From the NCBI GenBank assembly GCA_013334825.1, contig JAAXWR010000002.1, forward strand, positions 34,025-98,024: DNA of 64,000 bases. The letters run 5' to 3'. Shown piece by piece: positions 3,694-61,128 of the stretch (position 1 is its first letter; each line of letters starts with the position of its first letter). The notes below the pieces were generated by a model that saw only the letters and a list, made by a program, of their open reading frames with translations, was not told the origin of the DNA and made no database searches. The translations under genes were made by a program, and so were the position numbers. The stretch is from Candidatus Yonathbacteria bacterium. GTDB taxonomy: Bacteria > Patescibacteriota > Minisyncoccia > Phycocordibacterales > JACNGX01.

Positions 3694-3933
3694 ATCAAGA
3701 AGCACGAAGCAAGAATAAACGATGAAGGGAGGGAATAGAAGTTGGGAACATGGAGAAAGAATGATTTCTCAGACATCCGCACGACACGGATGCGGTTCTC
3801 AGAACAAGTAGCGTCTATTTTTTAAGAACTACGAACTACGAACTAAGAACTATGTAGGGTGTATGGCAAGCTTCCAACTCATATGCTATGATACCGGCAT
3901 ATTTATCCGTTATTTCACCAGAGTATTTTACAT

Positions 3934-4542: not shown

Positions 4543-5086
4543 AAGAATAGAAAACAATTATAAACAACAACGGGACGGGGCGAAAGCCCCGTCCCGTATT
4601 CGTATGTTCCCTGTAGCACGTGGGGTGCAGGGCAAGCGTACAAGTTCGTACTTCGTAGCCCGTCTCTAGTACAGCGTAGGGTGCAGGGCAGGGCGTAATT
4701 TTTAATTCAGCATTCATAATTTATACACAGTTTCCTTTTTCTCATGTTGTATCGTGTGTTCGTTCTACGAACTAAGAACTACGAACTACGAACTTGTGTT
4801 CGTCCATGTTCCACTACACCAACTTTTCTCATGCTTGTCATGCTTGCGTATCTTTTTTCGAGAATTATACTGATAGGGGGTTGCTACGGGTATTTTCTAG
4901 GACAAATCGTTTTTTCAGGGAGTCCGATGTTACTGCGCGCTTTGGTGCGTATGTTCAGGACACCCACCTGGCAATACGCTAGGGAATGCCCGGTTTATGC
5001 AACCCCTCAAAAGTCGTCCATCGTTCTTTCCAAGAATGCTGGACGTTTTTTGTTTGTTCTTTTCTTTCCTGTGATATACTTGTTGT

Positions 5087-5533
5087 ATGAAACGCCCTCT
5101 CCTCGGCATTGTGATGCTTGCTCTCGTGTGGTTGATATTCATTTTGAATACTCTCGCATTTGAACATTATTGGTATTGGATATATGAATGGTTTGATATA
5201 CCAATGCATTTTTTGGGAGGATTTTGGGTTGGAGGAACTATTATATGGATACTCGGTACATTTCTTAAACGTCGTTTTGCGTCCACACGTGGCGGATATC
5301 TGTTATCTGTTGTGGGTCTTGCGATGGTCATCGGGCTTCTTTGGGAACTGTTTGAATTTAGTATTGATACGTTTATCACATTTCACATGAATGATATCAT
5401 TGATACGCTTTCTGACCTCTCGATGGATTTTTTGGGAGCAACGGTTGCGCACGTGCTTTTTTCTCGTCAAAAGGATACGCCTGCACTCACTCCCCATGAA
5501 GAATCATCTTCTGTTGATACGCTGTTGGGATAA
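5087..5533 (+). CDS. Hypothetical integral membrane protein (3-4 TM helices)
   Basis: Hydrophobic helices in the translation. No recognisable catalytic motif. Confidence 0.45.
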   Translation: MKRPLLGIVMLALVWLIFILNTLAFEHYWYWIYEWFDIPMHFLGGFWVGGTIIWILGTFLKRRFASTRGGYLLSVVGLAMVIGLLWELFEFSIDTFITFHMNDIIDTLSDLSMDFLGATVAHVLFSRQKDTPALTPHEESSSVDTLLG

Positions 5534-5556: not shown

Positions 5557-6930
5557 ATGTCTTCTACACTTACTCTTACGTTTGCCGGTGGCGCTGGTTC
5601 AGTTACTGGCGCAAATTTTCATCTCACTGATTCTGTGTCGGGTATGCAATGTCTTGTTGATTGTGGACTTTTTCAAGGTGCATCGACGTCACTTCCGAAA
5701 AATGTTGAACCGTTTTCATACGTTCCTGCTGATATCGCATTTCTTTTTGTTACACATAGTCATATGGATCATATTGGACGCATCCCGCGTCTCGTAAGAG
5801 AAGGATTTCATGGTGTTATCCGTTCCACTCCCGCGACGAAGGATCTTGCGTATGAGATGCTGAAAGATAGTTTGTCTGTGCTTCGCTCTGAACAACGGAA
5901 GACTGGCATCGAACCTCCCTATGATGATGAGGACATTGAAGGGGCAATGCGTTTATGGGAAGGTGTTGAATATCATCAAGACATACCTATTTCAGGTGGT
6001 CTTGTTGCTCGATTATATGATTCGGGACATATTCTCGGATCTGCTATGGTATCGTTCACGCGTGAAGGAAGAACACTGGTTATTACTGGTGATTTAGGCA
6101 ACTCTCCTGCACCTATAGTCCGTGATACGGAAGTATTGCCAGAGGCGCACTATCTGGTGATGGAAAGTGTGTATGGCGACCGTAACCATGAAGACCGCGA
6201 TGGTCGTACAGAACTGCTTCGTTCTCTCATCCTTGAAACAGTAGAAAAAAAGGGAACGCTTGTTATCCCCGCATTTTCTTTGGAGCGTACGCAAGATGTG
6301 CTTTTTGAAATCAATAATTTTGTCGAGTCGCATGCGATTCCCAATGTCCCCGTATTTATGGACTCACCGCTTGCAATACGGGTCACGTCTATTTATCGCA
6401 AATATGAACGCTATTATAATGCCGATGTAAAAAGTGTCATAAAGAGTGGTGATGATATTTTCAAATTCCCTCATTTGTCATTTACTGAAACCCGTGAAGA
6501 GTCGGAGCGTATTAATAGTATTCCGGGGCCGAAAGTAGTTATTGCGGGTTCTGGAATGTCCAATGGGGGACGTGTGCGTCATCATGAACGTCTGTATCTT
6601 CCTGATGCAAAGAACACGATTCTTCTTGTGGGGTACCAAGTACCAGGGTCGTTAGGACGACAGCTTCTTGAAGGTGCAAAAAAGGTGCGGATATTTGATA
6701 CTGAAGTACCTGTTCGTGCGCGTATTGCTTCAGTAAATGGATATTCAGCGCACAAAGATATGGATGGACTTATCGCCTTTGCTGCACAAGGAGCAAAAAC
6801 ACTAGAAAAAGTATTTGTGACACTTGGTGAACCGCGCTCTTCGATGTTTCTCGCGCAACGACTTCGTGATTATGCTGATCTCAATACGCATGTTCCTGAG
6901 GATGGTGAAACAGTAACACTCGCACTATAG
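5557..6930 (+). CDS. Metallo-beta-lactamase/beta-CASP family RNA-processing nuclease (CPSF/RNase J-like)
   Basis: MBL motif 'VTHSHMDHIG', beta-CASP region and C-terminal His motifs. At 457 aa it has no KH domains. Confidence 0.8.
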   Translation: MSSTLTLTFAGGAGSVTGANFHLTDSVSGMQCLVDCGLFQGASTSLPKNVEPFSYVPADIAFLFVTHSHMDHIGRIPRLVREGFHGVIRSTPATKDLAYEMLKDSLSVLRSEQRKTGIEPPYDDEDIEGAMRLWEGVEYHQDIPISGGLVARLYDSGHILGSAMVSFTREGRTLVITGDLGNSPAPIVRDTEVLPEAHYLVMESVYGDRNHEDRDGRTELLRSLILETVEKKGTLVIPAFSLERTQDVLFEINNFVESHAIPNVPVFMDSPLAIRVTSIYRKYERYYNADVKSVIKSGDDIFKFPHLSFTETREESERINSIPGPKVVIAGSGMSNGGRVRHHERLYLPDAKNTILLVGYQVPGSLGRQLLEGAKKVRIFDTEVPVRARIASVNGYSAHKDMDGLIAFAAQGAKTLEKVFVTLGEPRSSMFLAQRLRDYADLNTHVPEDGETVTLAL

Positions 6931-7534: not shown

Positions 7535-8119
7535 ATGAACGATCTCGACCGTATTGCTGACGATATTCGTCTCTGTCACAAATGCCCATTGGCACAGACA
7601 CGCATATGTGCTGTCCCAGGAACAGGAAGTGGAAAAAGCGATATCGTCTTTATTGGTGAAGCTCCTGGTGCGCGTGAAGACCGTGAAGGATTGCCATTTA
7701 TTGGTGCTGCGGGGAAATTTCTTGATGAAATGCTTGCGGATATTGCGCTCTCTCGTGCCGATGTGTTTGTTACGAACGTCGTGAAATGTCGTCCACCGGA
7801 CAACCGTGACCCGCTTCCTGAAGAAGTGCGTATCTGCACAGAAGCATATCTCTGGAAACAGTTGGAAGTGCTCAAGCCAAAACTTCTCGTGCCACTTGGT
7901 CGGCATGCCATGCACCGTTTTCTCCCAGTAACAGAAAAAATAAGCGAGATACACGGCACGCCTGTTGGTATTACAAACCCTCTGTCAGGAGAGAAATATG
8001 TTGTTCTTCCGCTCTATCACCCCGCGGCAGCGCTCTATAACGGGAGTATGCGGGAAGTACTCAAGCGTGATTTTCGCGAAATACCGAAGATGATTGAAAA
8101 GATGAAATATGAAAAATGA
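7535..8119 (+). CDS. udg: Uracil-DNA glycosylase family 4 (Fe-S type)
   Basis: Motifs 'CHKCPL…', 'GEAPGAREDREGLPFIGAAGKFLDEML' and 'VVKCRPPDNRDP' match family-4 UDG. Confidence 0.85.
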   Translation: MNDLDRIADDIRLCHKCPLAQTRICAVPGTGSGKSDIVFIGEAPGAREDREGLPFIGAAGKFLDEMLADIALSRADVFVTNVVKCRPPDNRDPLPEEVRICTEAYLWKQLEVLKPKLLVPLGRHAMHRFLPVTEKISEIHGTPVGITNPLSGEKYVVLPLYHPAAALYNGSMREVLKRDFREIPKMIEKMKYEK

Positions 8120-8317
8120 AATATGTATAAAAAAGCGCACGAACTGCCGCCCGCACTTTTCCTGAGTAAAAAGGGTAATAATTTCCTAGTCATCCGTAGG
8201 ATCAATCAGAATATATTATAATTATAAAAAATCACATGTATTATTTGTGTATTATTAGATTTTTACTTTTTTGGTTTGAATATGAACTAATTGAGTGGCG
8301 CCATCTGACGCCTTTTT

Positions 8318-13579: not shown

Positions 13580-13721
13580 CAATATTCCCCGCCCTTATGG
13601 GCGGGGTCGCGGGACAATCCCGAATGTATGTTAAGTGTATATGAGGTATAAAAATTGTGTAACTATTTAAAGGAGTCCATAAATGCGCACAACATTTATA
13701 GGGTATCGACCCCGCAGTTAT

Positions 13722-13821
13722 CCAGCTCCACTTTCATAATAAACACACATGCTATGATAGATTTTTTATCCGAGACGTGAGTATTGTTTATAGATAAAGT
13801 CTTTTATGAAAGTGGGGCTGG
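13722..13821. repeat. 100-nt palindromic element with 16-nt terminal inverted repeats CCAGCTCCACTTTCAT / ATGAAAGTGGGGCTGG (copy 1 of 2)
   Basis: The same termini and the same 100-nt length recur at 58244-58343 with an unrelated interior. The termini resemble tmRNA/tRNA acceptor ends (…CCAGCUCCAC / GGGGCUGG…). Confidence 0.6.
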
Positions 13822-13834
13822 ATGCTCCTGGGCG

Positions 13835-14187: not shown

Positions 14188-14605
14188 TGGTGGAGATGGG
14201 GGGTATCGAACCCCCGTCCAAACGTGGTTTGCGAGTGGGTCTACGCGATGTAGGTTGTTTTTTGGATTTGAACCGATTGTTTTTGAAACAAACAAAACGA
14301 CAATCAGTCGAGTTTCGTCGATTCTCGAGCGTCTGATGAAACGGTCAGATGCTCCAGTCCGATGAGTATGACACCCTCTCAGACATATCGGACGTCAGAA
14401 GAGAGGACGCCGCTTAGGCGAATCGAGACACGAGGTCTTGATTAGGCGAAAGCGGGAGCGAAGGACGGTATTCCAAAGTAGGAAGAGGCAATACCTTTTG
14501 CTTTAAGAGACAAGTTCGCACTTATCGTTTGTGACGGTTTTACGAGTCATCACAGCTCGATCGCGCGCACGGGCAGAGACACGCCTGTCGAAGCCGATCA
14601 TCCCC
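14188..14605 (-). ncRNA. ssrA: tmRNA (ssrA), standard one-piece, 418 nt
   Basis: Minus-strand 5' end 'GGGGAUGAUCGGCUUCGACAGGCG' matches the conserved tmRNA 5' acceptor strand and GGnUUCGAC element. The 3' end 'GGACGGGGGUUCGAUACCCCCCAUCUCCACCA' has a T-arm, a 7-nt acceptor strand complementary to the 5' end (one G·U pair) and an encoded CCA, followed by a terminator. The gene lies immediately downstream of and co-oriented with smpB. A candidate tag ORF after '…CUCUUAAA' is GCA AAA GGU … GCC UAA, giving AKGIASSYFGIPSFAPAFA*. The tag is low confidence. Confidence 0.7.
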
Positions 14606-25293: not shown

Positions 25294-25557
25294 AGAGAGA
25301 AGAAGTATGTGGTAGCACATAAAAGAAATAATTTCTTTTGCGCATCTTGTACACCCTCTACAGAAAGTTCTTAGTTCGTAGTTTGTAGTTCTTAGAGCGA
25401 CGGACGACGACTTGTGGGATTTTTGTTTTTAGTTTTTTATCGTTTGTCGCTTATAGTTTTCTTTTCGATATTTCATATTCCTCATCTATTGTTTGTTTTA
25501 TCAACAGAAAAAAGAAGAAGAGTGCGCGTGAACATGTTATGATAGAAGTATTATCAA

Positions 25558-29131: not shown

Positions 29132-30154
29132 ATGCATTATATGAAGATTATTAGTTTCTCCAATGAAGAGTGGGAAAAAGACTTTCTTTCAAAGCATCTT
29201 CCCGCACACACATTCATCTTTGTGGATGGGTTTATGCAAGACCGTACCGATGTCTCTGACCCAGATGCAGAGATTGTTTCTGTGTTTGTGAGTTCACATG
29301 TGGGCGCTACGGAGATGGATCGCTTTCCGTCACTGAAGTGTATCGTGACGCGTTCGACAGGGTTTGACCATATTGACCTTGCCGAAGCTCTGAAGCGCGG
29401 CGTTGTCGTATCCAACGTGCCAACATACGGTGAGAATTCAGTTGCAGAGATGGCGTTCGCGCTTCTCCTTGCGCTCTCGCGTCGTATTTATGATAGTTAC
29501 AAGCAGGTTGTTGAGACGAGTAGTTTTTCACCAAAAGGGCTGACCGGCTTTGATTTGAAAGGCAAGACATTGGGTGTTGTTGGGACAGGACATATTGGTG
29601 TGTATGCGATTAAGATCGGCAAAGGATTTGGTATGGATATTGTCGCGTATGACCCCTTCAAAAATGATGCACTTGCGAATGAACTTGGCTTTCGGTATGT
29701 CGGTTCGTTTGATGAGCTTCTTGGTATGTCTGATGTTATTACACTCCACGTGCCACATAACGAGCATACGCACCACATGATCAATATGGATAATATCGAG
29801 AAGATCAAGAAAGGTGCCGTTCTCATCAACACCGCGCGTGGGCCAGTGGTAGAGACCATCGCAATGGTGAAAGCGCTTGAAGAGGGGATACTTGCGGGAG
29901 CAGGGCTTGATGTGCTTGAAGAAGAAGATTTTCTTCTCGATGAAGATGCACTTCTCCATATGGAACATCCGAATGGTGAGAAACTTAAGAACGTACTCGC
30001 CAATCAATATCTGATTGACCATCCACGTGTCATTGTGACACCACACAATGCGTTTAACACCAAAGAAGCACTCGAACGCATTCTTGCAGTAACTGTTGAA
30101 AACATTGAAGCGTGTGTAAGTGGAGCGCCGAAGAACGTCGTTAAAAGTTCTTAG
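29132..30154 (+). CDS. D-isomer-specific 2-hydroxyacid dehydrogenase (D-lactate/glycerate/hydroxypyruvate reductase-like), NAD-binding
   Basis: 'GKTLGVVGTGHIGVYAIKIGKGFGMDIVAYD' Rossmann motif and catalytic R/E/H context '…INTARGPVV…PHNA…'. A terminator AGCGGGGCGTGGGACC-TTCG-GTCCCACGCCCCGCT follows at 30188-30223. Confidence 0.85.
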   Translation: MHYMKIISFSNEEWEKDFLSKHLPAHTFIFVDGFMQDRTDVSDPDAEIVSVFVSSHVGATEMDRFPSLKCIVTRSTGFDHIDLAEALKRGVVVSNVPTYGENSVAEMAFALLLALSRRIYDSYKQVVETSSFSPKGLTGFDLKGKTLGVVGTGHIGVYAIKIGKGFGMDIVAYDPFKNDALANELGFRYVGSFDELLGMSDVITLHVPHNEHTHHMINMDNIEKIKKGAVLINTARGPVVETIAMVKALEEGILAGAGLDVLEEEDFLLDEDALLHMEHPNGEKLKNVLANQYLIDHPRVIVTPHNAFNTKEALERILAVTVENIEACVSGAPKNVVKSS

Positions 30155-30322
30155 TTCGTAGTCCTTGGTTCGTAGAGACGAAAAGCGGGGCGTGGGACCT
30201 TCGGTCCCACGCCCCGCTTGCGCTTACAGTCTATAACCTATAAGCTATAAGCTATTCACCTACAGCCTAATCTCCTCACATACTAACCTCCTAATCTCCT
30301 ATTCTCCTAACCTCCTATCATT

Positions 30323-32865: not shown

Positions 32866-32985
32866 GAGATTAGGAGATTAAACGCTAGGAGATTAAAACG
32901 AAAAACGATAAACGATAAAAAGAAAAAGCCTCGAGCATGACTTGTCGTGCTCGGCTAAAACAAAAAAAAGCGACCGTGAGGTCGC

Positions 32986-37026: not shown

Positions 37027-37494
37027 ATGATTCTCCACATTGCTGCCGATCACGCTGGTCATGCTCTCAAAGAATACTTGGTATCTGTTTTTCGCAAAGA
37101 AGGATATGAAGTCACGGATCATGGGGCACATGCCTATAATAAAGAAGACGATTATCCCGATTTCATATATCCTGCTGCACGGGCGGTCGGAGAAGCATCT
37201 CTTAAGAACGAGGATGTACGCGGTATCATTATTGGTGGTTCCGGGCAAGGAGAAGCAATGGTCGCCAATCGTGTGCTGGGAGTACGTGCTGCAGTATGGT
37301 ATGGAGGGGATCGTCATATTCCATTATTGTCACGTGAACATAATGACGCGAACATCCTTTCTCTCGGCGCACGCTTTATGGATAAAACACTCGCTGAAGA
37401 TGTGATAAAAGAGTGGCTTGCCATGCCGTTTTCAAACGACGACCGACATGTGCGGAGGATTAAGAAGATAGACGGGGACGTGAATAATGAATAA
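37027..37494 (+). CDS. rpiB: Ribose-5-phosphate isomerase B
   Basis: 'MILHIAADHAGHALKEYL…GIIIGGSGQGEAMVANR' matches the RpiB/LacAB family. Confidence 0.9.
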   Translation: MILHIAADHAGHALKEYLVSVFRKEGYEVTDHGAHAYNKEDDYPDFIYPAARAVGEASLKNEDVRGIIIGGSGQGEAMVANRVLGVRAAVWYGGDRHIPLLSREHNDANILSLGARFMDKTLAEDVIKEWLAMPFSNDDRHVRRIKKIDGDVNNE

Positions 37495-38023
37495 TGAATT
37501 ACGAATTATGAATATTGAAGCAAAAGAATTTAAACAGCTTGTCGATCTGGTGTATAGTGCCCATCAAGAACATAATACGCGCAAGGACTATAGACAGGAG
37601 GGCACAGTACCGTTTGTTGTACATCCTTTGTGGTGTGCACTCACTCTTCTTAATGATCAGCGTATTCCGTTTGAGGAGCGTCGCATCGGATATCAAGCAC
37701 TTCTTTTACATGATGTGTTAGAGGATACGGATATGGATATACCAGAGGATATTTCTCGTGAGGTTGTTGCGTTAGTGCAAGAAATGACACATGCCTCATG
37801 GGATGACGAACAAAATATCTCAGGTAAAAGTCATATCGTAAAATTATTGAAGCTCACAGACAAAATTGCCAGTATGTATGATGAGACAGTCCGTCCAGAC
37901 CCAGTTCGTCGACGACAATGGAAGGAATTAATAGAGCGTTTGTTGGCTGATGTTGAAGTACACTATGGAAATATCCGATTAGTGACACTTGCAAAAGCGA
38001 TTCTTGCCGATACAGATTGGTAA
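37487..38023 (+). CDS. HD-domain phosphohydrolase (small, standalone)
   Basis: HD signature 'H…LLHDVLEDT'. Overlaps rpiB by 8 nt. Confidence 0.65.
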   Translation: MNNELRIMNIEAKEFKQLVDLVYSAHQEHNTRKDYRQEGTVPFVVHPLWCALTLLNDQRIPFEERRIGYQALLLHDVLEDTDMDIPEDISREVVALVQEMTHASWDDEQNISGKSHIVKLLKLTDKIASMYDETVRPDPVRRRQWKELIERLLADVEVHYGNIRLVTLAKAILADTDW

Positions 38024-38057
38024 CCGTACTCGTCTATTCATAATTCTTTATTCACGT

Positions 38058-38768
38058 ATGTCTCTCGAACTCATTCCAGCCATTATTCCTGAAAGTCTCG
38101 ATGATTTATCGCGTAAACTTTCTCTTGTTGAGGGTCTTGTTCCTGTTGTCCAAATTGATATGGTAGACGGTATCTTTGCGCCCCATGCGCGCAAAAGTTG
38201 GCCGTTTGCTGACGTGAATGGTATGGGGGAGTTTCGTCGGATCGGTGCAGAAGAAGACGGACTTCCTTTTTGGGATAGCTTTTTCTTTGAAGCAGATCTT
38301 ATGGTGCGAGAACCAGAACGTATGCTTGAAGATATTATTGCGGCAGGTTTTGGTCGTGTTGTTGTTCATTTGGGAAGCACAGAGCAATTTCGTGATATTG
38401 TTGAACGTCTTCGCGCGTTTGATGTAGAGACAGTTATCGCGCTCTCTCTTGAGGATGATCCCGCAGATATCGAAATCTACGCGGATGATATTGATGCAAT
38501 ACAGTGCATGGGTATTAGCCGTATCGGTGCACAAGGACAACAGACGGATGAACGTATCTATGAACGTGTGTCCACATTGCGAGCAATGTACCCTGACCGT
38601 ATAATAAGTGTAGATGGTGGCGTAACGCTTGCGAATGCGTCACTTCTTATCGGAGCTGGTGCTGACCGACTTGTATCAGGTTCGGCAGTGTTTGGTGCTG
38701 ACGACATAGGAAAAGCAATTGCTGATTTTTACACGATTGAGGACCGAAGCGAAGAACTTTTTTCATGA
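38058..38768 (+). CDS. rpe: Ribulose-phosphate 3-epimerase-like TIM-barrel protein
   Basis: '…VQIDMVDGIF…' and the C-terminal 'ISVDGGVTLANASLLIGAGADRLVSGSAVFGADD' match RPE signature regions. I take the start at ATG 38058. Confidence 0.7.
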   Translation: MSLELIPAIIPESLDDLSRKLSLVEGLVPVVQIDMVDGIFAPHARKSWPFADVNGMGEFRRIGAEEDGLPFWDSFFFEADLMVREPERMLEDIIAAGFGRVVVHLGSTEQFRDIVERLRAFDVETVIALSLEDDPADIEIYADDIDAIQCMGISRIGAQGQQTDERIYERVSTLRAMYPDRIISVDGGVTLANASLLIGAGADRLVSGSAVFGADDIGKAIADFYTIEDRSEELFS

Positions 38769-39628
38769 AACCTCTTACTGATGACAATGTACGCGATCTC
38801 ACAGAGCGTGCTCGTGCGATACGCGAAAGTATTATCGACATGCTTCTTTCTGCTGGGTCTGGACATACCGCGGGACCTTTGGGGATGGCGGATATTTTCG
38901 CGCTCATGTATTTTCATGTGTTGCGTCACAAGCCAAAAGATCCGTTGTGGTCTGCACGTGATAGAGTCATTCTTTCCAATGGACATATTTGTCCAGTGTT
39001 GTACGCGACCATGGCACATGCGGGATATTTCCCTGTGCAAGAATTGACTACATTACGCGCATTTGGTTCGCGTTTGCAAGGACATCCTCATCGTGAATGG
39101 CTACCAGGAATTGAGACAAGTTCGGGACCACTTGGCTCTGGACTTTCACAAGCGATTGGTATGGCGCTCGCCGAACGTATGGACAGAGGGCGTGCGAGTG
39201 ACACGTATTTTTATGTGTTTATGGGTGATGGGGAACTTGACGCGGGACAAGTATGGGAAGCGGTGATGCTTGCCGGTAAAGAACGTCTTGCCAATATCTT
39301 GGTTATTATTGACCGCAACAATATTCAAATTGATGGATATACATGGGATGTGATGCCACTTGAGCCACTCTACGAAAAATGGGAGAGTTTTAATTGGCAG
39401 GTACAAGAAGTCGATGGGCACAACTTTGAAGCAATGAATGACGCTATTGGTAAAGCACAGTCCGCATATGGTATGCCGTCAGTTATCATCGCGCATACAA
39501 TTCCTGGGAAAGGAGTAGATGGATTTGAGAAAGATTATACATGGCATGGGAAACCACCAAATAAAGAAGAAGCAACACGCGCGCTTGAAGAATTGCGAAC
39601 GCTGGGAGGAAAAATAGCCGAAGATTAA
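38765..39628 (+). CDS. tktN: Transketolase, N-terminal (thiamine-diphosphate-binding) subunit
   Basis: 'GHTAGPLGMADIFALMY…SNGH…GSGLSQAIGMA…FMGDGELDAGQVWEA' is the TPP-binding half of transketolase. Confidence 0.9.
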   Translation: MKPLTDDNVRDLTERARAIRESIIDMLLSAGSGHTAGPLGMADIFALMYFHVLRHKPKDPLWSARDRVILSNGHICPVLYATMAHAGYFPVQELTTLRAFGSRLQGHPHREWLPGIETSSGPLGSGLSQAIGMALAERMDRGRASDTYFYVFMGDGELDAGQVWEAVMLAGKERLANILVIIDRNNIQIDGYTWDVMPLEPLYEKWESFNWQVQEVDGHNFEAMNDAIGKAQSAYGMPSVIIAHTIPGKGVDGFEKDYTWHGKPPNKEEATRALEELRTLGGKIAED

Positions 39629-39820
39629 ACGAAGTTTCAAGTTGTTAGTTTCAAGTTGCTAGATTGGTTACGAAGTACGAACGAGTACGAACATACGAAC
39701 ATAAACTCACCAATATAGTTGTCCATGTTCAGTAGCGTTCGTATGTTCCCTAAACCGCGTAGGGTTCAGGGCAAGCGTATAAGTTCGTACTTCGTAATCT
39801 AATATTATTTACTGTACTAT

Positions 39821-40228
39821 ATGGATATCATCACCCAAAAAACTGAAGAACCAATTATTATTCTTGAGACAGAAACTACTTCTTCGCTTACTCCACCGAT
39901 TTCCTACGATGATTTTATGTCTGTTGATATTCGTGTTGGCACTATTATTGAAGCGAGTTTGTTTCCTGAAGCGCGCAAGCCGATGCATAAATTCGTGATT
40001 GATTTTGGCCAGGATATCGGTCTCCGTCGCTCATGTGGACAAATTACTCAAAACTACACCCCTGAACAATTGGTGGGCAAGCAAGTTTTAGGTGTGGTGA
40101 ATTTTCCTGAGAAACAAATCGGTCCCTATGTATCGCAAGCACTCACCTTAGGGTTTCGTGACTTTGAGAACGGTGTTGTCTTGGTAACACCAGAACATGC
40201 AGTGCCAAATGGAGAACGGTTGATGTAA
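39821..40228 (+). CDS. tRNA-binding domain protein (CsaA/Trbp111/EMAP-like OB fold)
   Basis: '…VDIRVGTIIEA…HKFVIDFGQDIGLRRSCGQITQNYTPEQLVGKQVLGVVNFPEKQIG' matches the Myf/CsaA tRNA-binding domain. Confidence 0.7.
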   Translation: MDIITQKTEEPIIILETETTSSLTPPISYDDFMSVDIRVGTIIEASLFPEARKPMHKFVIDFGQDIGLRRSCGQITQNYTPEQLVGKQVLGVVNFPEKQIGPYVSQALTLGFRDFENGVVLVTPEHAVPNGERLM

Positions 40229-40240
40229 GTAATAAAAAAG

Positions 40241-40284
40241 AAAATTTTCAATTTCTAATTTTCAATTTTCAAACAATTTCTAAT
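40241..40284. repeat. Left inverted repeat flanking the four-helix-bundle gene cassette
   Basis: 'TTTTCAATTTCTAATTTTC' (40245-40263) is identical to the reverse complement of a 19-mer within 40721-40753. Confidence 0.65.
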
Positions 40285-40312
40285 ATAGAAATTTGAAAAA
40301 TGTATCAAACAT

Positions 40313-40669
40313 ATGCAGTACGATCTTGAAAACAGAACAAAAATTTTTAGCAAGGAGGTGATTATGTTCTTAAAACGTTTACAGAAGGATGAAATAAATA
40401 GACATATCATTTCTCAACTTGTTCGTTCGGCGACTAGTGTCGGTGCGAATTATTGTGAAGCAAATGGTGCTAGTTCACAGAGAGATTTCAAACATAAAAT
40501 ATTTATCTGTAGAAAGGAAATTCAAGAAACAAAATATCGGTTAGAATTAATTGCAGAATCGAATAAAGACGAAAAAGATAGTGTTGAAAAATTATGGAAA
40601 GAAGCTCATGAATTAACTCTCATTTTTAATAAAATATCAACAACACTAAGGGAACGCACTGAAAAATAA
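40313..40669 (+). CDS. Four-helix-bundle protein (TIGR02436; the '23S rRNA intervening-sequence protein' family)
   Basis: '…EINRHIISQLVRSATSVGANYCEANGASSQRDFKHKIFICRKEIQETKYRLELI…' is the family signature. Confidence 0.8.
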   Translation: MQYDLENRTKIFSKEVIMFLKRLQKDEINRHIISQLVRSATSVGANYCEANGASSQRDFKHKIFICRKEIQETKYRLELIAESNKDEKDSVEKLWKEAHELTLIFNKISTTLRERTEK

Positions 40670-40720
40670 ACTGAATATGTTTTGTGAAGCTTGAATCATT
40701 GATACATTGAAATATTGTTT

Positions 40721-40753
40721 GAAAATTAGAAATTGAAAATTGAAAATTAAACC
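40721..40753. repeat. Right inverted repeat flanking the four-helix-bundle gene cassette
   Basis: Reverse complement GGTTTAATTTTCAATTTTCAATTTCTAATTTTC matches the left repeat. Confidence 0.65.
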
Positions 40754-40786
40754 AAACACTATCATATTTGTTATACTATATATATT

Positions 40787-41776
40787 ATGTTTACCCCTTC
40801 TCTCAAATTAAATCCAAATCTTTTTGCCGATACCATTGAGCGTGTACCGACGCGCTTTGGTTTCGGTGATGGACTGGTTTTAGCAGGAAAGAAAAACACG
40901 CGCGTGGTTGCGTTGTGTGCCGATTTGACTGCATCTACCAAGATGGATGGATTTGCAAAAGCGTTTCCTGAAAGATTTATACAGATGGGGATTGGAGAGC
41001 AGTCTATGGCGAGTGTTGCTTCGGGACTTGCAGCAGCGGGAAAGATTCCGTTTTTTGCTTCGTATGCAATGTTTTCTCCAGGACGTAATTGGGAGCAGAT
41101 CCGTACAACGATTTGCTATAATAATGTGAATGCAAAAGTGGTTGGCGCACATGCAGGTGTGTCGGTGGGTCCCGACGGAGGAACACATCAAGCGATTGAA
41201 GATATTGCACTTATGCGTGTTATTCCGCATATGACTGTTGTGGTGCCATGTGACGCACACGAAGCACACAGAGCAACGCTCGCCCTTGCGGAATACAATG
41301 GACCGGCGTATCTTCGTTTGACACGTGAACCAACGCCTCTCATGACGACTTCCGATACGCCTTTTGCTATCGGTAAAGCGCAGATTTTCTTCGAACCAAA
41401 GCGCGGAGTAAAAAAGACTATTGGTATCATTGGAGCGGGACCAGTCTTATATGAAGCACTCTTGACAGCAAAGGATTTGGAGGGAGAAGGTATTGGTGTA
41501 TCAGTTATGAATCTTGCAACCATTAAACCACTTGATGAAGAAGCGGTGCTTTCGTTTGCCAAAGCACATAAAGCGCTCGTGACTGTTGAAGAACATCAAA
41601 TTGCTGGCGGGCTCGGATCAACGATTGCGGAATATCTCTCATCCGTGTATCCAATGCATATTGTGCGTATTGGTGTACGCGATGCCTTTGGTCAATCGGG
41701 TACACAAAAAGAACTCATCGCGCACTATGGAATGGATAAAGAAAGTATCAAACGTGAAATACGGAATGTGAAATAA
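40787..41776 (+). CDS. tktC: Transketolase, C-terminal (pyrimidine-binding plus C-terminal domain) subunit
   Basis: '…GIGEQSMASVASGLAAAGKIPFFASYAMF…HAGVSVGPDGGTHQAIEDIALMRVIP…' is the Pyr-binding half. Confidence 0.9.
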   Translation: MFTPSLKLNPNLFADTIERVPTRFGFGDGLVLAGKKNTRVVALCADLTASTKMDGFAKAFPERFIQMGIGEQSMASVASGLAAAGKIPFFASYAMFSPGRNWEQIRTTICYNNVNAKVVGAHAGVSVGPDGGTHQAIEDIALMRVIPHMTVVVPCDAHEAHRATLALAEYNGPAYLRLTREPTPLMTTSDTPFAIGKAQIFFEPKRGVKKTIGIIGAGPVLYEALLTAKDLEGEGIGVSVMNLATIKPLDEEAVLSFAKAHKALVTVEEHQIAGGLGSTIAEYLSSVYPMHIVRIGVRDAFGQSGTQKELIAHYGMDKESIKREIRNVK

Positions 41777-42115
41777 GGAATACGAATGTAGGAAATAGGT
41801 TAGAGGTGGTAGGGACAGATATTCGAATCAAGTGTGCCCTGCACCCTACGTGGTGCAGGGAATCATGAAGCAAGAATACGAGAGGCGAATAAAAAAAATA
41901 TGAGCATACGAATAACGAATGTGTACGAATATACGAATGACAAAGAAACGATAAATTATAAAAAAAACTATAGACAATGAAATAAGAAAATAGAAATATG
42001 GGAAGAGAAAACTATAAATGGTAAACGATAAAAGAAAAGAGTCGTATTCGTACATTCGTACGTATTCGTTATTCGTAAGCATTCTTGAAACTTGCAACTG
42101 ACAACTTAAAACTCG
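41777..42115. repeat. Composite intergenic repeat element (copy B)
   Basis: Contains 'ggttagagg' words, the palindrome CCCTGCACC-CTACGT-GGTGCAGGG (41837-41860), 'acgaata' words, and R4 'GAAATAAGAAAATAGAAATATGGGAAGAGAAAACTATAAATGGTAAACGATAAA'. The module order is the same as in copies A and C. Confidence 0.7.
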
Positions 42116-56206: not shown

Positions 56207-56530
56207 ATGTGAAATGAGAAAATAGAAATGAGGAATATGGGATGGGTTACGAAGTACGAACTTGTACGCTTGCCCTGCACCCCACGTGGCGTGCTGTGCA
56301 TCCTACGTGGTGCATAGTGCTAGGGAACATACGAAACGAGACTAGAAGCAAGAATCAAGAAGCACGAATAAAGAAGAAAACGATGAAATATGAAAATAGA
56401 AATATGAAATATGAAGATGAAAACTATAAACGGTAAACGATAAAATGAAAAAGTTAAAAAAAAGAAAGACAGTGTTCAATACAATGTAAAAAAATAATCC
56501 CGCGGCTTCCGCCGCGGGATTATGAGTTAC
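56207..56530. repeat. Composite intergenic repeat element (copy C). Includes a terminator AATCCCGCGGC-TTCC-GCCGCGGGATT at 56496-56525 that serves the minus-strand gene 56527-56700
   Basis: The module order is the same as in copies A and B. The R4 block 'GATGAAATATGAAAATAGAAATATGAAATATGAAGATGAAAACTATAAACGGTAAACGATAAA' is present. Confidence 0.7.
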
Positions 56531-56730: not shown

Positions 56731-56834
56731 GAAAGAACTAAAACTTTTTGAGTATTCGATTCACAGAGAATCAAATCCTCAAAAAGTTGCCGGAGGAGGG
56801 GAGAAAAAATTTCCTCTCCTCCGGCTGTGGCTAT
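56731..56834. repeat. Direct repeat 1 (about 103 bp): a stop-codon-plus-terminator cassette shared by two minus-strand genes
   Basis: Near-identical to 57105-57207. It contains the palindrome CCGGAGGAGGGGAGAAAAAATTTCCTCTCCTCCGG and ends exactly with the stop codon (cta) of gene 56831-57073. Confidence 0.75.
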
Positions 56835-57104: not shown

Positions 57105-57207
57105 AGAAGAACTACAACTCTTTGAGTATTCGATTCACAGAGAATCAAATCCTCAAAAAGTTGCCGGAGGAGGGGAGAAAAAATTTCCTCTCCTCCGGCT
57201 GTGGCTA
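57105..57207. repeat. Direct repeat 2 (about 103 bp), the same stop-plus-terminator cassette at the 3' end of the DEDDh exonuclease gene
   Basis: About 96% identical to 56731-56834. It ends with the exonuclease stop codon. Confidence 0.75.
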
Positions 57208-57929: not shown

Positions 57930-58000
57930 AGGGGGGTAGAGAAGTAGTATCTCGGGAGGCTCATAACCTCCAGACCTAGGTGCAATTCCTGGCCCCCCTA
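57930..58000 (+). tRNA. Candidate tRNA with CAT anticodon (Met/fMet/Ile2-lysidine class), atypical T-loop
   Basis: Fold: acceptor AGGGGGG/CCCCCCT, D-stem GAGA/TCTC, anticodon stem GGAGG/CCTCC with loop CTCATAA, T-stem CTAGG/CCTGG with loop TGCAATT, discriminator A. A strong terminator follows at 58008-58045. Confidence 0.45.
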
Positions 58001-58167
58001 CACCCAAACTCAAAAACGACACTATTTGTGTCGTTTTTGAGTTTTAGGGCGCAAGTTGTCTTTTTCCATAATTCATTATTCATAATTCACATCCCGTTTT
58101 CTTGATTCGAATAATGTATTAAGTAAAAGTTGAGTCTTCTTGGGAAAAGTGATATTCTGTAGTCCGT

Positions 58168-58244
58168 TGCCGGGGTAGCTCAGTTGGTTAGAGCATAGCA
58201 CTCATAAAGCTAAGGTCGTGGGTTCGATCCCCACCCCCGGCACC
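58168..58244 (+). tRNA. tRNA-Met (CAT) elongator-type or tRNA-Ile2 (lysidine)
   Basis: Cloverleaf: acceptor GCCGGGG/CCCCGGC, D-arm GCTC-AGTTGGTTA-GAGC, anticodon loop CTCATAA, T-arm GTGGG-TTCGATC-CCCAC, discriminator A. A G1-C72 pair argues against the initiator type. Confidence 0.85.
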
Positions 58245-58343
58245 CAGCTCCACTTTCATGGATGACGCATGTAGTATGCTTGCGTTTGTTGTTGCGACTA
58301 TAATTTTTGGTGATTTATCTTCTGTTATGAAAGTGGGGCTGGG
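58244..58343. repeat. 100-nt palindromic element, copy 2, with termini CCAGCTCCACTTTCAT / ATGAAAGTGGGGCTGG, abutting the tRNA-Met 3' end
   Basis: The termini and the length are identical to 13722-13821. The interior is unrelated. Confidence 0.6.
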
Positions 58344-58603
58344 CGAAGTGGGGCAGAGCATACGTTTATATAAGTATTTTTTCCGCAATATTCCCCCAGC
58401 ACTATGTACCACGTGGATGCACAGCAGGCCACGTGGTTGCACGGCACACTACGTGAGATGCCGGGCAACTGCGTAGTATTTGTGTAAGTTCCGCGTGTTT
58501 CTGCGTTCATTCCGCATCGCTTCCGCGTCATGCAAAACTTGCGTTTCTCCTCATAATATAGTACCCTATGGTGCATCGTCCCAAGTGGGCGAAACACTAC
58601 ATT

Positions 58604-58762
58604 ATGTCACAAGATAGACTCATCAAATTGACCTGCACCGAGTGCAAACGCGTCAACTATTGGTCCAGTAAAAACAAAAAGACCAATACTGACAAGCTTG
58701 AACTCAACAAATACTGCAAGTGGTGCAATAAACAGACGAAGCATAAGGAAGCGAAGAAATAA
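58604..58762 (+). CDS. rpmG: Ribosomal protein L33
   Basis: '[52 protein letters not shown]' is an L33 zinc ribbon. I take the start at the internal ATG of the longer ORF. Confidence 0.8.
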
Positions 58763-58798
58763 TCCGTATATCACGGAGATTCTTCGTACAAGTCCCAT

Positions 58799-58875
58799 GC
58801 GGCCGTGGTGTAGCCCGGTTAACACGTCGCTCTGTCACAGCGAAGATCGCCGGTTCAAATCCGGTCGGCCGCGCA
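58799..58875 (+). tRNA. tRNA-Asp (GTC)
   Basis: Acceptor GCGGCCG/CGGCCGC, D-arm GTGT-…-ACAC, anticodon stem TCGCT/AGCGA with loop CTGTCAC, T-arm GCCGG-TTCAAAT-CCGGT, discriminator G. A terminator follows at 58876-58917. Confidence 0.85.
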
Positions 58876-58917
58876 TAACAAGAAAGGGCTGGCTTTTGCC
58901 AGCCCTTTCTTGTTATG

Positions 58918-59125
58918 TCTATCGCGAGCCGACTGGATTTGAACACGTAGGGGGTCGGGGGCGGCGGAACGCCCCCGTGAAGGAGGTTACGTGGAACCGT
59001 GGGTTCTACGAGCGCACCGAGCACCACTTTCATAAATGAAAGTGGTGCTCGGGAGCAGTGAATATTCCGGTCGGCCGCGCATAACAAAAAGAGGTTGGCT
59101 TTTGCCAATCTCTTTTTGTGTATAC
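58918..59125. repeat. tRNA-fragment mosaic and att-like scar: an inverted tRNA-Asp-like T-arm/acceptor fragment (58920-58945), a GC hairpin, a CCGAGCACCACTTTCAT-AA-ATGAAAGTGGTGCTCGG hairpin (59017-59052), then a direct duplicate of the tRNA-Asp 3' end plus terminator (59064-59122)
   Basis: 'TCCGGTCGGCCGCGCATAACAAgAAAGggcTGGCTTTTGCCAgccCTTTCTTGTTAT' at 58860-58917 recurs as 'TCCGGTCGGCCGCGCATAACAAaAAGAggtTGGCTTTTGCCAatcTCTTTTTGT' at 59066-59122. Confidence 0.6.
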
Positions 59126-59165
59126 TGATTTTCCACAAACATACGAGTGATGTATACTTATCAGT

Positions 59166-60227
59166 ATGTTGAACCTCAAAGACATTACTCTTCTTGGTAT
59201 TGACTGTGTTGATTTGGACCGTCTCAAACTTGCGGCAGATATTTCATGCAAGGATATTTCTTTTGGTGCGGTAAAATTGCTTTCCTCAATTCCCGATGAT
59301 GATTCTCGGGTTGTTCCTATTCGTCCTATTAGTTCATCTAAAGAGTATTCAGATTTTTGTATCAAAGAGATGCACAGATATGTTGATACGAAATATGTTC
59401 TTGTTTTTCAGTATGACGGTTTTGTCTTGAATCCAGACGCCTGGTCCGACACGTTTCTTGCGTATGATTATATTGGTGCTCCATGGTATCATCTCGGGGA
59501 CCTTCATGTCGGAAACGGGGGTTTTAGTTTGCGAAGCAAGCGCCTTCTTTTGTGGTTGGCAGAAAATTATACACTTCCTAAGGTGCGTATTCATCCTGAA
59601 GATGTCTTTATTGCGCATTTTGCAAGACCTTTTCTTGAGAAAGAAGGTATGGTGTTTGCGCCTGAAGATGTTGCATTGACATTCGCATGTGAGGGTAATG
59701 AACGTACTGTTGTTTGGAATGGTCAATTTGGGTTTCATGGAATAGCATATACCGATATTTCAAATTGGCTTTCACAACATGTTGAGTACCAAAAGCAATT
59801 ATCATATCCACTTGATGATTATGCGACACTGATGAAAAAATATCCCGTATATACCGGACACGTGCATACATTTCGTTTTGGAACATATGATTTAGAAAAT
59901 TATAAGCGTCTTTCGGAAGGGGTGAAGCGGTATGAGATAAGGGTTACCAAAGAAAAGCATCATGACTGGTCGCGTGTGCACGAAGGAGACACGATTGTGT
60001 TCAAGCGGTCTGGAGTTTCTTTTGCTACGTTTCCCATTCCCGCATTTGAGAGAACGGTCTCTCGTCTGGAACGTTTCTCGGGATTGCGTGAGTTAAAGAA
60101 TAAGTATCCTGATTTATCGATTACACCACCTTTTGATTTAATTCCGCGGCGCATGCGTTTTCTGGTAAGATATATGCCGACAATGTTTTTACCCAAACAT
60201 GAAGAATATACGGTTTTTTGGTTTTAA
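59166..60227 (+). CDS. Hypothetical protein with an uncharacterised N-terminal domain (possibly nucleotide-diphospho-sugar-transferase-like) and a C-terminal ASCH-like beta-barrel
   Basis: C-terminal 'EGVKRYEIRVTKEKHH…EGDTIVFKRSG' fits the ASCH GxKxxExR motif. The N-terminal 'YDYIGAPW…GNGGFSLRSKR' block has no secure assignment. The gene is flanked by tRNA genes. Confidence 0.5.
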   Translation: MLNLKDITLLGIDCVDLDRLKLAADISCKDISFGAVKLLSSIPDDDSRVVPIRPISSSKEYSDFCIKEMHRYVDTKYVLVFQYDGFVLNPDAWSDTFLAYDYIGAPWYHLGDLHVGNGGFSLRSKRLLLWLAENYTLPKVRIHPEDVFIAHFARPFLEKEGMVFAPEDVALTFACEGNERTVVWNGQFGFHGIAYTDISNWLSQHVEYQKQLSYPLDDYATLMKKYPVYTGHVHTFRFGTYDLENYKRLSEGVKRYEIRVTKEKHHDWSRVHEGDTIVFKRSGVSFATFPIPAFERTVSRLERFSGLRELKNKYPDLSITPPFDLIPRRMRFLVRYMPTMFLPKHEEYTVFWF

Positions 60228-60282
60228 ATAGTAAGAAAGAAAAGTTGATAATATCTCTCAAATATAGTACGCTGATACGCAA

Positions 60283-60358
60283 GCCAAGATAGCTCAGTTG
60301 GTAGAGCACATCCATGGTAAGGATGAGGTCTCGGGTTCGATCCCCGATCTTGGCTCCA
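60283..60358 (+). tRNA. tRNA-Thr (GGT)
   Basis: Acceptor GCCAAGA/TCTTGGC, anticodon stem CATCC/GGATG with loop ATGGTAA, T-arm TCGGG-TTCGATC-CCCGA, discriminator T, CCA encoded. Confidence 0.9.
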
Positions 60359-60410
60359 GCAGGAGCCAAGAACACAACATGCATTTATGCATGTTGTGTA
60401 GGGGATCGAA

Positions 60411-60447
60411 CCGAGCACCACTTTTGCCATTGCAAAAGTGGTGCTCG
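60411..60447. repeat. Hairpin repeat CCGAGCACCACTTTTGC-CAT-TGCAAAAGTGGTGCTCG (family member 3), preceded by GGGGATCGAA and palindromic hairpins
   Basis: The same stem as at 13835-13872 and 59017-59052. The preceding 'GGGGATCGAACCGAGCACC' mirrors 'GGGGGTATCGAACCGAGCACC' in the tmRNA-scar region. Confidence 0.6.
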
Positions 60448-60560
60448 ACATCCAGGAGTACTTGGTGAAATGTGAGCTCTGCGAAACTTTCCTCGTGATT
60501 CTTGCTTCTCGTCGTTTTTCATTCTTGATTCTTAATTCGTACTTCTTAATTCTCGTCTGC

Positions 60561-60633
60561 GCCACCTTAGCTCAGTTGGTAGAGCGATCGCTTCGTAAGC
60601 GATAGGTCCCCAGTTCAATCCTGGGAGGTGGCT
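60561..60633 (+). tRNA. tRNA-Thr (CGT)
   Basis: Acceptor GCCACCT/AGGTGGC, D-arm GCTC-AGTTGGTA-GAGC, anticodon stem ATCGC/GCGAT with loop TTCGTAA, T-arm CCCAG-TTCAATC-CTGGG. Confidence 0.85.
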
Positions 60634-61128
60634 CTCGAAAATAATTTATATTTCTATATGTTTGTCACTGGTCAACGATATCGAATTTCACGAAAACTTA
60701 AGTGGTATTTTTTGTTGAAAACATTTCTTATCCTTATGTTACTTTCTTTATTTATAGCGATTTTTTCAGAGGAAGATACATATACTATAATTACGTCATT
60801 TATTCCGTTTGCACTGTTTATATGGATTTATTTAGCGATAAAGTATCGATATGTTTTTCTTACAATAGAAAAGGATGCACTCATTATAAATTCGGGAATA
60901 ATATTAAAACGTTCAATGTTAATTCCTTTCGATACTATTCAAAATATCAATGACATACGAGGCCCTGTATCTTCGATGTTTAATTTTGTGAAAGTAAGAA
61001 TATGGACAGCGTCTCCTTCTCAAATATATATTAAAAATGGAAATAGTAATAATCGCCCAAATGGGGTTTTGTGGCTTGAAACAAAAGATGTTGAAGATTT
61101 AAGACACATACTTTCGTTACACAAATAA
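60628..61128 (+). CDS. Membrane protein with a bacterial PH (bPH_2/YdbS-YdbT-like) domain
   Basis: Two N-terminal TM helices, then '…IEKDALIINSGIILKRSMLIPFDTIQNINDIRGPV…VKVRIWTAS' typical of bPH_2. Confidence 0.5.
   Translation: MALENNLYFYMFVTGQRYRISRKLKWYFLLKTFLILMLLSLFIAIFSEEDTYTIITSFIPFALFIWIYLAIKYRYVFLTIEKDALIINSGIILKRSMLIPFDTIQNINDIRGPVSSMFNFVKVRIWTASPSQIYIKNGNSNNRPNGVLWLETKDVEDLRHILSLHK

Follow-up and report, generated by a model that had tools for sequence, protein, structure and literature searches.

A four-helix-bundle protein gene enclosed by inverted heptamer arrays: a putative mobile hairpin cassette in operon spacers of candidate phyla radiation bacteria

The 64,000-nucleotide stretch of DNA analysed here (the window; contig JAAXWR010000002.1) comes from Candidatus Yonathbacteria, a Parcubacteria lineage of the candidate phyla radiation (CPR). 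In the spacer between two genes of one of its operons, csaA and tktC, we find a 506-bp unit (positions 40243-40748) made up of a gene for a four-helix-bundle (4HB) protein and of two inverted arrays of heptanucleotides that enclose it. The gene (40313-40669, forward strand, 118 amino acids) is the sole representative in the window of the family TIGR02436/PF05635, the '23S rRNA intervening sequence protein' or S23p family. We propose with moderate confidence that the unit is a hairpin cassette bearing an open reading frame (ORF), of the same type as the intervening sequences (IVSs) of 23S rRNA, which resides here in an mRNA operon spacer and whose mechanism we infer. Comparison of genomes shows the gene and its heptamer arms as a single conserved package recurring across phyla, and the link between this protein family and inverted heptamer arrays appears not to have been reported so far.

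A preliminary description of the region had noticed inverted repeats of about 20 bp around the 4HB gene, and these are indeed present. Exactly two occurrences of the 19-mer TTTTCAATTTCTAATTTTC exist in the 64 kb (0.10 expected), on opposite strands at 40245-40263 (+) and 40721-40739 (-), and none of 100 shuffles yielded two. The full inverted repeat is 35 nt long on either side (40243-40277 and 40714-40748), 89 % complementary, with a perfect core of 23 nt. The arms had been characterized as low-complexity sequence; they are AT-rich and repetitive, but they are in fact structured as ordered arrays. The left arm (40243-40277, +), AATTTTC AATTTCT AATTTTC AATTTTC AAACAAT, consists of four AATTT[T/C][C/T] heptamers followed by the inner anchor heptamer AAACAAT, and the right arm (40714-40748, +), ATTGTTT GAAAATT AGAAATT GAAAATT GAAAATT, is its mirror image; Tandem Repeats Finder detects a period of 7 with 4.3 copies at both 40243-40272 and 40719-40748. 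Beside the ORF lies an additional, perfect inverted repeat of 10 nt, with its left half AATGTATCAA (40299-40308, +) just 5' of the start codon and its right half TTGATACATT at 40699-40708 (+), the two halves pairing in the predicted fold. In the minimum-free-energy RNA fold of the whole spacer, the arms form the closing stem (-102 kcal/mol, z = -2.7). The cassette has a GC content of 25-34 %, compared with about 45 % in its flanks.

To see how general this arrangement is among CPR bacteria, we relied on a one-genome-per-species scan with alignment of close homologues, from which 80 loci were taken among at least 583 matches. They include representatives of Moran-, Magasanik-, Kuenen-, Falkow-, Doudna-, Shapiro-, Gracili-, Portnoy- and Buchananbacteria, some of the taxon labels of the metagenome-assembled genomes (MAGs) looking unreliable. 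With a threshold of at least 40 for the flanking inverted-repeat score, 64 of the 76 full-length 4HB genes scored are positive (median 50); no shuffled flank scores above 30, and the median and 95th percentile of the shuffles are 18 and 24. The 209 other genes in the same loci, used as a control, have a median score of 18 and reach 40 in eight cases. Three of the eight belong to PF05635 as well, in other subfamilies, and so represent blind rediscoveries of the association; this leaves 5 of 206 other genes, ordinary ones such as rpsG, rpsJ and atpF with a complete ORF-less hairpin on each side. The csaA loci of other organisms (L092-L171) contain no AATTTNN array. The arm type follows the gene subfamily rather than the host, with AATTTNN arms recurring across many CPR lineages. 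Forty-four non-redundant anchored pairs of CPR arms show that heptamer positions 1-5 are almost invariantly AATTT across all four units of both arms, that positions 6-7 vary, and that the inner heptamer reads AA[A/T]CAAT. The ORF is poorer in GC than its flanks in 75 of 76 loci (31.9 % vs 42.0 %), the cassette is oriented in the sense of its co-directional neighbours in 61 of 62 cases, and the median gaps separating it from them are 62 and 66 nt.

The preliminary description had further suggested that the inverted repeats delimit a small mobile unit carrying the 4HB gene, whose movement would account for the scattering of such genes, and this idea gains support both from the states of the homologous spacer in relatives and from near-identical copies in unrelated contexts. 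Judging from sequence alignments, fixed spacer sites have evidently acquired cassettes, lost them or exchanged them, and the breakpoints lie within the heptamer arrays. Four related contigs were compared at the csaA-tktC spacer. Locus L001 has the order rpe-tktN-csaA-4HB-tktC, as in the window, with the 4HB protein 86 % identical and the neighbours except rpe 76-91 % identical. In L092, the closest relative (96-97 % protein and 90-93 % nucleotide identity in the flanks), the slot of the cassette is occupied by a gene of the HIT family (L092:3463-3897, 144 amino acids, PF01230 at 88.9 bits), around which no convincing flanking inverted repeat was found. The spacer is empty and only 87 nt long in L094 (80-86 % identity), and it contains an unrelated 27-bp hairpin in L095 (72-79 % identity). 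A blastn comparison of the window with L092 aligns 38058-40227 with 1211-3407 and 40742-41877 with 4003-5145 of the latter, the sequences between the two blocks being unrelated. The breakpoints thus fall at 40227/40228 and 40741/40742, the right one inside the right heptamer array, and the segment specific to the window (40228-40741, +) corresponds to the 4HB cassette minus its last heptamer. That heptamer (40742-40748) is common to the window and L092 and resembles the GAAGATT of the empty site in L094.

Alignments of the copies and their surroundings further show that gene and arms move jointly between CPR lineages and between genomic contexts, and that the unit duplicates within genomes. 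Near-identical 4HB proteins are encoded in unrelated flanks in the locus pairs L064/L065 (97 % identity), L063/L072 (95 %) and L012/L003 (92 %). Homology between L063 and L072 begins and stops at the outer ends of the arms; that between L064 and L065 begins at the left arm and rightward runs into the start of a similar downstream gene. Locus L027 carries two 4HB cassettes (646-990 and 1957-2295) separated by 1 kb, of which one is placed between a histidine-kinase and a response-regulator gene; the two proteins are 90 % identical and mutually closest, and the similarity is bounded by the arms. Three divergent copies coexist in one Moraniibacteriota MAG. In addition, an ORF-less derivative in L001 (1929-2064) matches both cassette ends including the inner repeat, and other ORF-less hairpins with cassette-type arms occur in L018, L042, L044, L059, L061, L071 and L091. 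The Moraniibacteriota locus L044 has such hairpins, each of about 115 nt, in successive spacers (5143-5258, 5747-5866 and 6266-6330) near two ATP-synthase-like genes, their AATTTTG/AATTTCG heptamer arms abutting stop and start codons.

Several observations weigh against the interpretation of the unit as a mobile IVS-type cassette. No target-site duplication is seen at the junctions of the two L027 copies, of L063/L072 or of L064/L065, very short duplications being hard to exclude with such AT-rich ends. Inspection of the neighbouring genes, as opposed to an exhaustive scan, revealed no transposase or integrase in 91 cassette loci with 3-kb flanks, and the sole ORF of the cassette encodes the 4HB protein, in which there is no transposase domain. 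The case for mobility is therefore built entirely on the distribution of the copies. The cassette at the window site is shared with L001 at dS above 1 and can therefore be inherited vertically over long periods, which one does not usually see in an insert that is purely selfish. Other cargo, such as an HD-like ORF in the window (37508-38023), is likewise flanked by heptamer hairpins, and so are ordinary genes; the arms are therefore not exclusive to 4HB genes. Processing of the cassette by RNase III, as discussed below, is suggested by analogy with rRNA IVSs. The pairing of the arms, too, can be read in more than one way. Arms pair better with their own partners (29.0 of 35 positions) than with the partners from other loci (26.7; permutation p < 2e-4), and in an alignment of 30 sequences 88.9 % of cells are paired, a percentage inflated by the fact that the arms were picked by maximising pairing, compared with 84.2 % in shuffles; double-sided changes number 68 as against 28.8, and the observed values were reached in none of 500 shuffles. 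Mismatches in the arms show no bias of G-U over A-C (100 vs 88, p = 0.42), a comparison made uninformative by the TC/CT heptamer variants, each of which gives one G-U and one A-C. A stem in the sense-strand RNA is thus not favoured over a symmetric site acting at the DNA level. Moreover, within the CPR subfamily the heptamer cores do not co-vary freely but stay invariant, and positions 6-7 frequently lack pairing, a pattern which suggests that sequence-specific recognition explains the arms at least as well as base pairing does.

The protein itself is a regular member of its family, and one that is 100 % identical to it is annotated in Candidatus Yonathbacteria. It scores 58.1 bits against PF05635 (cutoff 33.8) and 77.1 bits against TIGR02436 (cutoff 24), and profile comparison matches it to the structure 2RLD (E = 7.6e-16). 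Its AlphaFold2 monomer model (pLDDT 89.9) consists of four helices and superposes in Foldseek on 2RLD (BT_0352) and 2GSC (Xcc0516) with TM scores of 0.75-0.82, and on the accessory variability determinant (Avd) structures 4DWL and 8UB7 with scores of 0.70-0.75, at a sequence identity of 8-11 %. A conserved motif (G)xxRxxxSxxxNxxE has been described for the family (PMC3936711), and the window protein possesses its R38, S42, N46 and E49; in the alignment of homologues S42, N46 and E49 are invariant and R38 is nearly so (at least 90 %), the leading G not being conserved. Homopentameric assembly is known for 2GSC and Avd (PMC4990558), and the window protein is presumably an Avd-like pentamer as well. 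It is basic, with a pI of about 9.1 (median among the homologues 9.45). For three pairs of genes, including the window and L001 copies at the same site, pN is 0.05-0.06 and pS 0.62-0.82, giving a dN/dS of about 0.05, by which measure the ORF is under strong purifying selection. The arms are conserved far better than synonymous sites, and these comparisons show that purifying selection acts on both the protein and the arms. Outside the context discussed here, PF05635 genes have been noted inside cas loci (PMC3936711).

The association extends beyond CPR. A tblastn search against plasmids retrieved 4HB homologues with 33-43 % identity, and of the twelve examined, ten (from cyanobacterial and Chloroflexota plasmids) have inverted tandem-heptamer arms whose unit differs from case to case. 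Together with the 64 positive CPR genes, these cases run counter to the possibility, considered in the preliminary description, that other copies of the gene lack the flanks and that the inverted repeat is merely a unique piece of low-complexity sequence. The arms are built of TAATTCG in Nostoc flagelliforme (35 nt, 100 %) and Dolichospermum (33 nt, 100 %), of CAATTCG and AGGTCGG in two plasmids of Nostoc punctiforme, of AAATTCA in Aulosira (35 nt, 100 %), of ACGATTT/GGGATTT in Planktothrix, of AAGGATG and AGATTTT in Chlorohelix, of TTTTAGA in Gloeocapsa, and of CTTCCGC-like units in Pseudanabaena. The two homologues without clear heptamer arms are both from Bacteroidota, with weak arms in Bernardetia (L172) and none in Chondrinema (L179). 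A co-directional gene follows immediately downstream in 11 of the 12 cases, and in nine cases annotated co-directional genes are present on both sides; among the neighbours are helicase/methylase genes, DUF1156/Swt1-HEPN, subunits of RND efflux systems and cas1. Across the sequences compared, what is constant family-wide is the 7-nt period, the number of about four to five units and the mirror symmetry, the sequence of the unit being what varies. A further case can be found in a published supplementary table, according to which a four-unit GGGAATC array overlaps the start codon of XCC0516 in Xanthomonas campestris (PMC4692102); XCC0516 is the 4HB protein of PDB entry 2GSC, on which the model of the window protein superposes with a TM score of about 0.8.

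The closest known parallel to the cassette is offered by ORF-containing IVSs in the 23S rRNA of Leptospira, Coxiella burnetii, Brucella and Haemophilus (Warrier et al. 2016, PMC4990558). The IVS of Coxiella has a stem of 28-bp terminal repeats with an S23p ORF in the loop and tandem GACAGAT heptamers on the 5' side, and it is excised by RNase III; an old hypothesis regards IVSs as mobile elements whose ORF serves mobility (PMC4990558). The window element is similar in having an S23p/PF05635 ORF that occupies the loop of a hairpin, terminal inverted repeats of about 28-35 bp that close this hairpin, a total length of about 430-510 nt, tandem heptamers by the stem, the sense orientation within a host transcript, and suspected mobility. 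It differs in its location, an mRNA operon spacer instead of helix 25 or 45 of the 23S rRNA gene, in an arm composed wholly of heptamers, and in the state of the ORF, which is strongly selected here but decaying and probably untranslated in Coxiella; its excision, too, is proposed by analogy. The possibility that the element is a true 23S rRNA IVS was ruled out, as no rRNA is detected in the window (Rfam), no conserved rRNA motifs were found in the 91 cassette loci, and the neighbours are protein-coding.

By analogy, then, the cassette probably works like an IVS. Only weak promoter-like matches (9 of 12 positions) are present in the window cassette (8 vs 4.0 ± 2.2 in shuffles), and no terminator was found in it; together with the sense bias and the short gaps to neighbours this points to expression by read-through from the host operon. 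In the operon transcript the arms would pair into a stem of about 30-35 bp, which RNase III may cut and so release the cassette RNA from the polycistronic message, as in the IVSs of Coxiella and Leptospira. An RNase III signature motif was not found among the ORFs of the window, which represents just 64 kb of the genome. The basic, Avd-like and presumably pentameric protein would bind nucleic acid, its likeliest target being the heptamer arms or stem of its own cassette, and spread without target duplication would most likely come about when heptamer arrays or hairpins already residing in operon spacers recombine or undergo exchange with one another.

Heptamer arrays have a literature of their own. 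The STRR heptanucleotides of cyanobacteria invite comparison. Rehm et al. (2015, PMC4692102) studied heptameric simple sequence repeats (SSRs) of the types GGGAATC in Xanthomonas and GGGGAYT in Nostoc, mostly with four units, as formers of G-quadruplexes; the GGGAATC arrays of Xanthomonas include 70-75 convergent pairs, lie between co-directional genes and have no known function. The arms in the window resemble such inverted SSR pairs in the 7-nt unit, the number of about four units, the convergent arrangement and the position in a spacer between co-directional genes, and they differ in being AT-rich (so that no quadruplex is expected) and in that the pair encloses a specific conserved gene. 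A search of the text of PMC4692102 by terms yielded no mention of S23p or IVS proteins, and our searches of the accessible literature found no paper linking the TIGR02436/PF05635 family to heptamer inverted repeats.

It is tempting to go a step further and to regard TIGR02436/PF05635 proteins and inverted arrays of about four heptamers as one widespread two-part system, encompassing CPR, Cyanobacteriota, Chloroflexota, Xanthomonas and the rRNA IVSs, whereby a pentameric, Avd-like protein would recognise the hairpins of the arrays and drive or maintain their spread or processing, the ORF-less hairpins being non-autonomous derivatives. We put this forward as a tentative idea, possible yet speculative. 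If true, it would explain the origin of the ORF-bearing rRNA IVSs, the over-representation of heptamers in bacterial intergenic DNA, and the genes for 'four helix bundle proteins' scattered through operons and defence loci. The S23p/IVS family has been without a function since 1993, its homologue Avd being understood only inside diversity-generating retroelements (DGRs), and heptamer intergenic repeats have been an unexplained oddity of Xanthomonas and Nostoc; here they are joined with an S23p-type gene as one unit, and three formerly separate puzzles become linked. The package of gene and arms provides a rule for recognising such cassettes, and two testable hypotheses follow from it, the binding of the arms by the protein and the excision of the cassette from mRNAs by RNase III. 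For CPR genomics, the cassette represents a common source of differences in gene content between near-identical operons.

Two alternative interpretations deserve more serious consideration. According to the first, which we regard as unlikely, there is no dedicated mobility at all: the 4HB gene would be a vertically inherited host gene, the arms would be generic intercistronic RNA structures (serving processing or stabilisation, or acting as insulators) such as are present in numerous operon spacers of these genomes, and the apparent movement would reflect ordinary gain and loss of genes. Such a view can accommodate the ORF-less heptamer hairpins between atp genes and ribosomal protein genes, the status of period-7 arrays as the dominant tandem repeat in the window, the synteny of the cassette in the window and L001 with its dN/dS of about 0.05, and the almost constant sense orientation within operons. 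It has difficulty with the near-identical copies (97, 95 and 92 %) whose flanks are unrelated and whose homology stops at the arm ends, with two exchanges over a distance of 7 kb between genomes sharing 90-93 % identity in their flanks, with the arm-bounded duplicate inside one genome, with the AT-skewed composition in 75 of 76 hosts, and with arm types tied to the gene subfamily and not to the host.

The second alternative, also improbable in our opinion, is a DNA transposon akin to MITEs (the miniature transposable elements with inverted repeats) or insertion sequences, with the arrays serving as terminal inverted repeats for a transposase encoded elsewhere and the 4HB gene being a passenger. 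MITEs, as well as repetitive extragenic palindromic elements and bacterial interspersed mosaic elements (REP/BIME), are likewise short inverted-repeat elements in operon spacers, and the ORF-less heptamer hairpins look similar to them. Terminal inverted repeats, ORF-less derivatives, multiple copies in multiple contexts and homology ending at the arm termini all fit a transposon, and the invariant heptamer cores suggest recognition by a protein. The arms are nevertheless tandem heptamers instead of unique terminal repeats, and the loop of the full-length element holds a conserved gene that does not encode a transposase. The junction pairs examined show no target-site duplication, and the inspection of neighbours mentioned above revealed no transposase. 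That the same cargo and architecture persist across phyla while the arm sequence changes completely is not expected of a passenger, nor is the 61:1 sense bias expected of a transposon with symmetric termini unless selection filters the insertions.

Two other alternatives can be dealt with briefly. CPR genomes are rich in DGRs, and the structural similarity to Avd described above (TM 0.70-0.75 to 4DWL and 8UB7) raises the question of whether the 4HB protein is the Avd of such an element. Both are small, basic four-helix-bundle proteins, the Avd pentamer binding structured RNA together with a reverse transcriptase, and no family is linked to DGRs more often than PF05635, as an Avd-like partner (PMC10053308). 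Yet the gene has rpe, tktN, csaA, tktC, a phosphoribosyltransferase gene and pilM as neighbours and no reverse transcriptase beside it, a scan for the DGR-type reverse transcriptase motif (with a crude regular expression) was negative in the window and in the 91 loci, the locus lacks template and variable repeats, and the protein, with its 8-11 % identity to Avd, does not match the bAvd model in Pfam, making this assignment very improbable. That the inverted repeat is a chance feature of a spacer that is AT-rich and repetitive is hardly credible, considering two exact 19-mers where 0.10 were expected, a median flank score of 50 set against at most 30 in shuffles and a median of 18 for control genes, and the absence of AATTTNN arrays from other organisms' csaA loci (L092-L171). 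A phage or defence-related origin was considered as well and rejected: no relatives of the cassette were found in the viral contigs of IMG/VR, phage records gave only two partial, weak matches, and PADLOC gave none.

The host operon has the order rpiB-[HD]-rpe-tktN-csaA-[4HB]-tktC around the cassette. All four genes of the transketolase region proposed in the preliminary description were recovered where it had placed them, and Pfam and TIGRFAM profiles assign them to the families it had named. The tktN gene (38765-39628, +) encodes the N-terminal, thiamine-diphosphate-binding subunit of transketolase (PF00456, 203 bits), and tktC (40787-41776, +) the subunit with the pyrimidine-binding and C-terminal domains (PF02779, 129 bits; PF02780, 91.5 bits), so that the PF00456 part and the PF02779 + PF02780 part are indeed on separate genes. 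Between them, at 39821-40228 (+), lies the gene for a CsaA-type tRNA-binding-domain protein (PF01588; TIGR02222 at 129.9 bits, cutoff 119.65; NF007495 at 160 bits, cutoff 117). As the preliminary description had noted, both csaA and the 4HB cassette lie between the transketolase halves. Division of transketolase over two genes is nothing unusual, and the placement of csaA between them is conserved in the lineage; neither feature belongs to the mobile unit. The same arrangement occurs in all four related contigs (L001, L092, L094 and L095), where the tktN orthologues are 79-97 % identical and the gene order is kept. A trace of how csaA arrived may be preserved, as the empty csaA-tktC spacer of L094 contains, at 3455-3475, the sequence ATTGCTGAAGATTAAACG, which corresponds to the C-terminal 'IAED*' of the window tktN, and the window has a 14-nt near-repeat, GAAGATTAAACGAA at 39620-39633 and GAAAATTAAACCAA at 40742-40755, connecting the 3' end of tktN with the spacer preceding tktC. 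This suggests that csaA was inserted between the two halves by an event that duplicated the end of tktN.

Other hairpins and repeats are present in the window. A second cassette of like architecture and different cargo is found at 37479-38055; its 171-amino-acid ORF (37508-38023) has a weak match to HD_4 (E = 0.0046), and its arms read GTGAATA ATGAATA ATGAATT ACGAATT ATGAATA (37479-37513) and, as the complement, TATTCAT AATTCTT TATTCAC (38035-38055). At this site L092 has kept the left array, with a hairpin of the TACGAAC class replacing the gene, and all that L001 retains of the ORF is a remnant of its 3' end. ORF-less long hairpins of this class, with 7-8-nt stem repeats of the TACGAAC/ACGAATA type, occur at 657-875, 4640-4797, 39668-39797 and 41904-42080, that is, in spacers including those on both sides of the tkt genes, and several of them have an inner CCCTGCACC...GGTGCAGGG hairpin. 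The one in the tktN-csaA spacer (39668-39797) belongs to a repeat family other than that of the arms of the 4HB cassette; its stem is formed by 39668-39689 and 39776-39797 (22 nt, 86 % complementary), and the segment 39661-39800 folds at -54.7 kcal/mol (z = -7.8).

Tandem repeats with a period of 7 and about four copies dominate the short tandem repeats of the window, mirroring the over-representation of heptamers reported for Xanthomonas and Nostoc. Six strict arrays have this period, compared with none or one for each of the periods 5, 6 and 8-11, and none is found in shuffles. Examples of period-7 repeats are located at 3685-3715, 3826-3852, 4765-4794, 8098-8125, 25366-25395, 30146-30175, 32895-32927, 56344-56444 and 60521-60553. 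A 48-nt hairpin sequence, AACTTTTTGAGTATTCGATTC...GAATCAAATCCTCAAAAAGTT, is present twice, at 56742-56789 and 57115-57162, the copies being 325 nt apart and just 5' of a cluster of tRNA genes. Finally, the motif TTATGAAAGTGGGGCTGG and its complement occur at 13720-13823, near the tmRNA gene (14188-14605), and at 58320-58343 and 59017-59040, among the tRNA genes (57930-60634).

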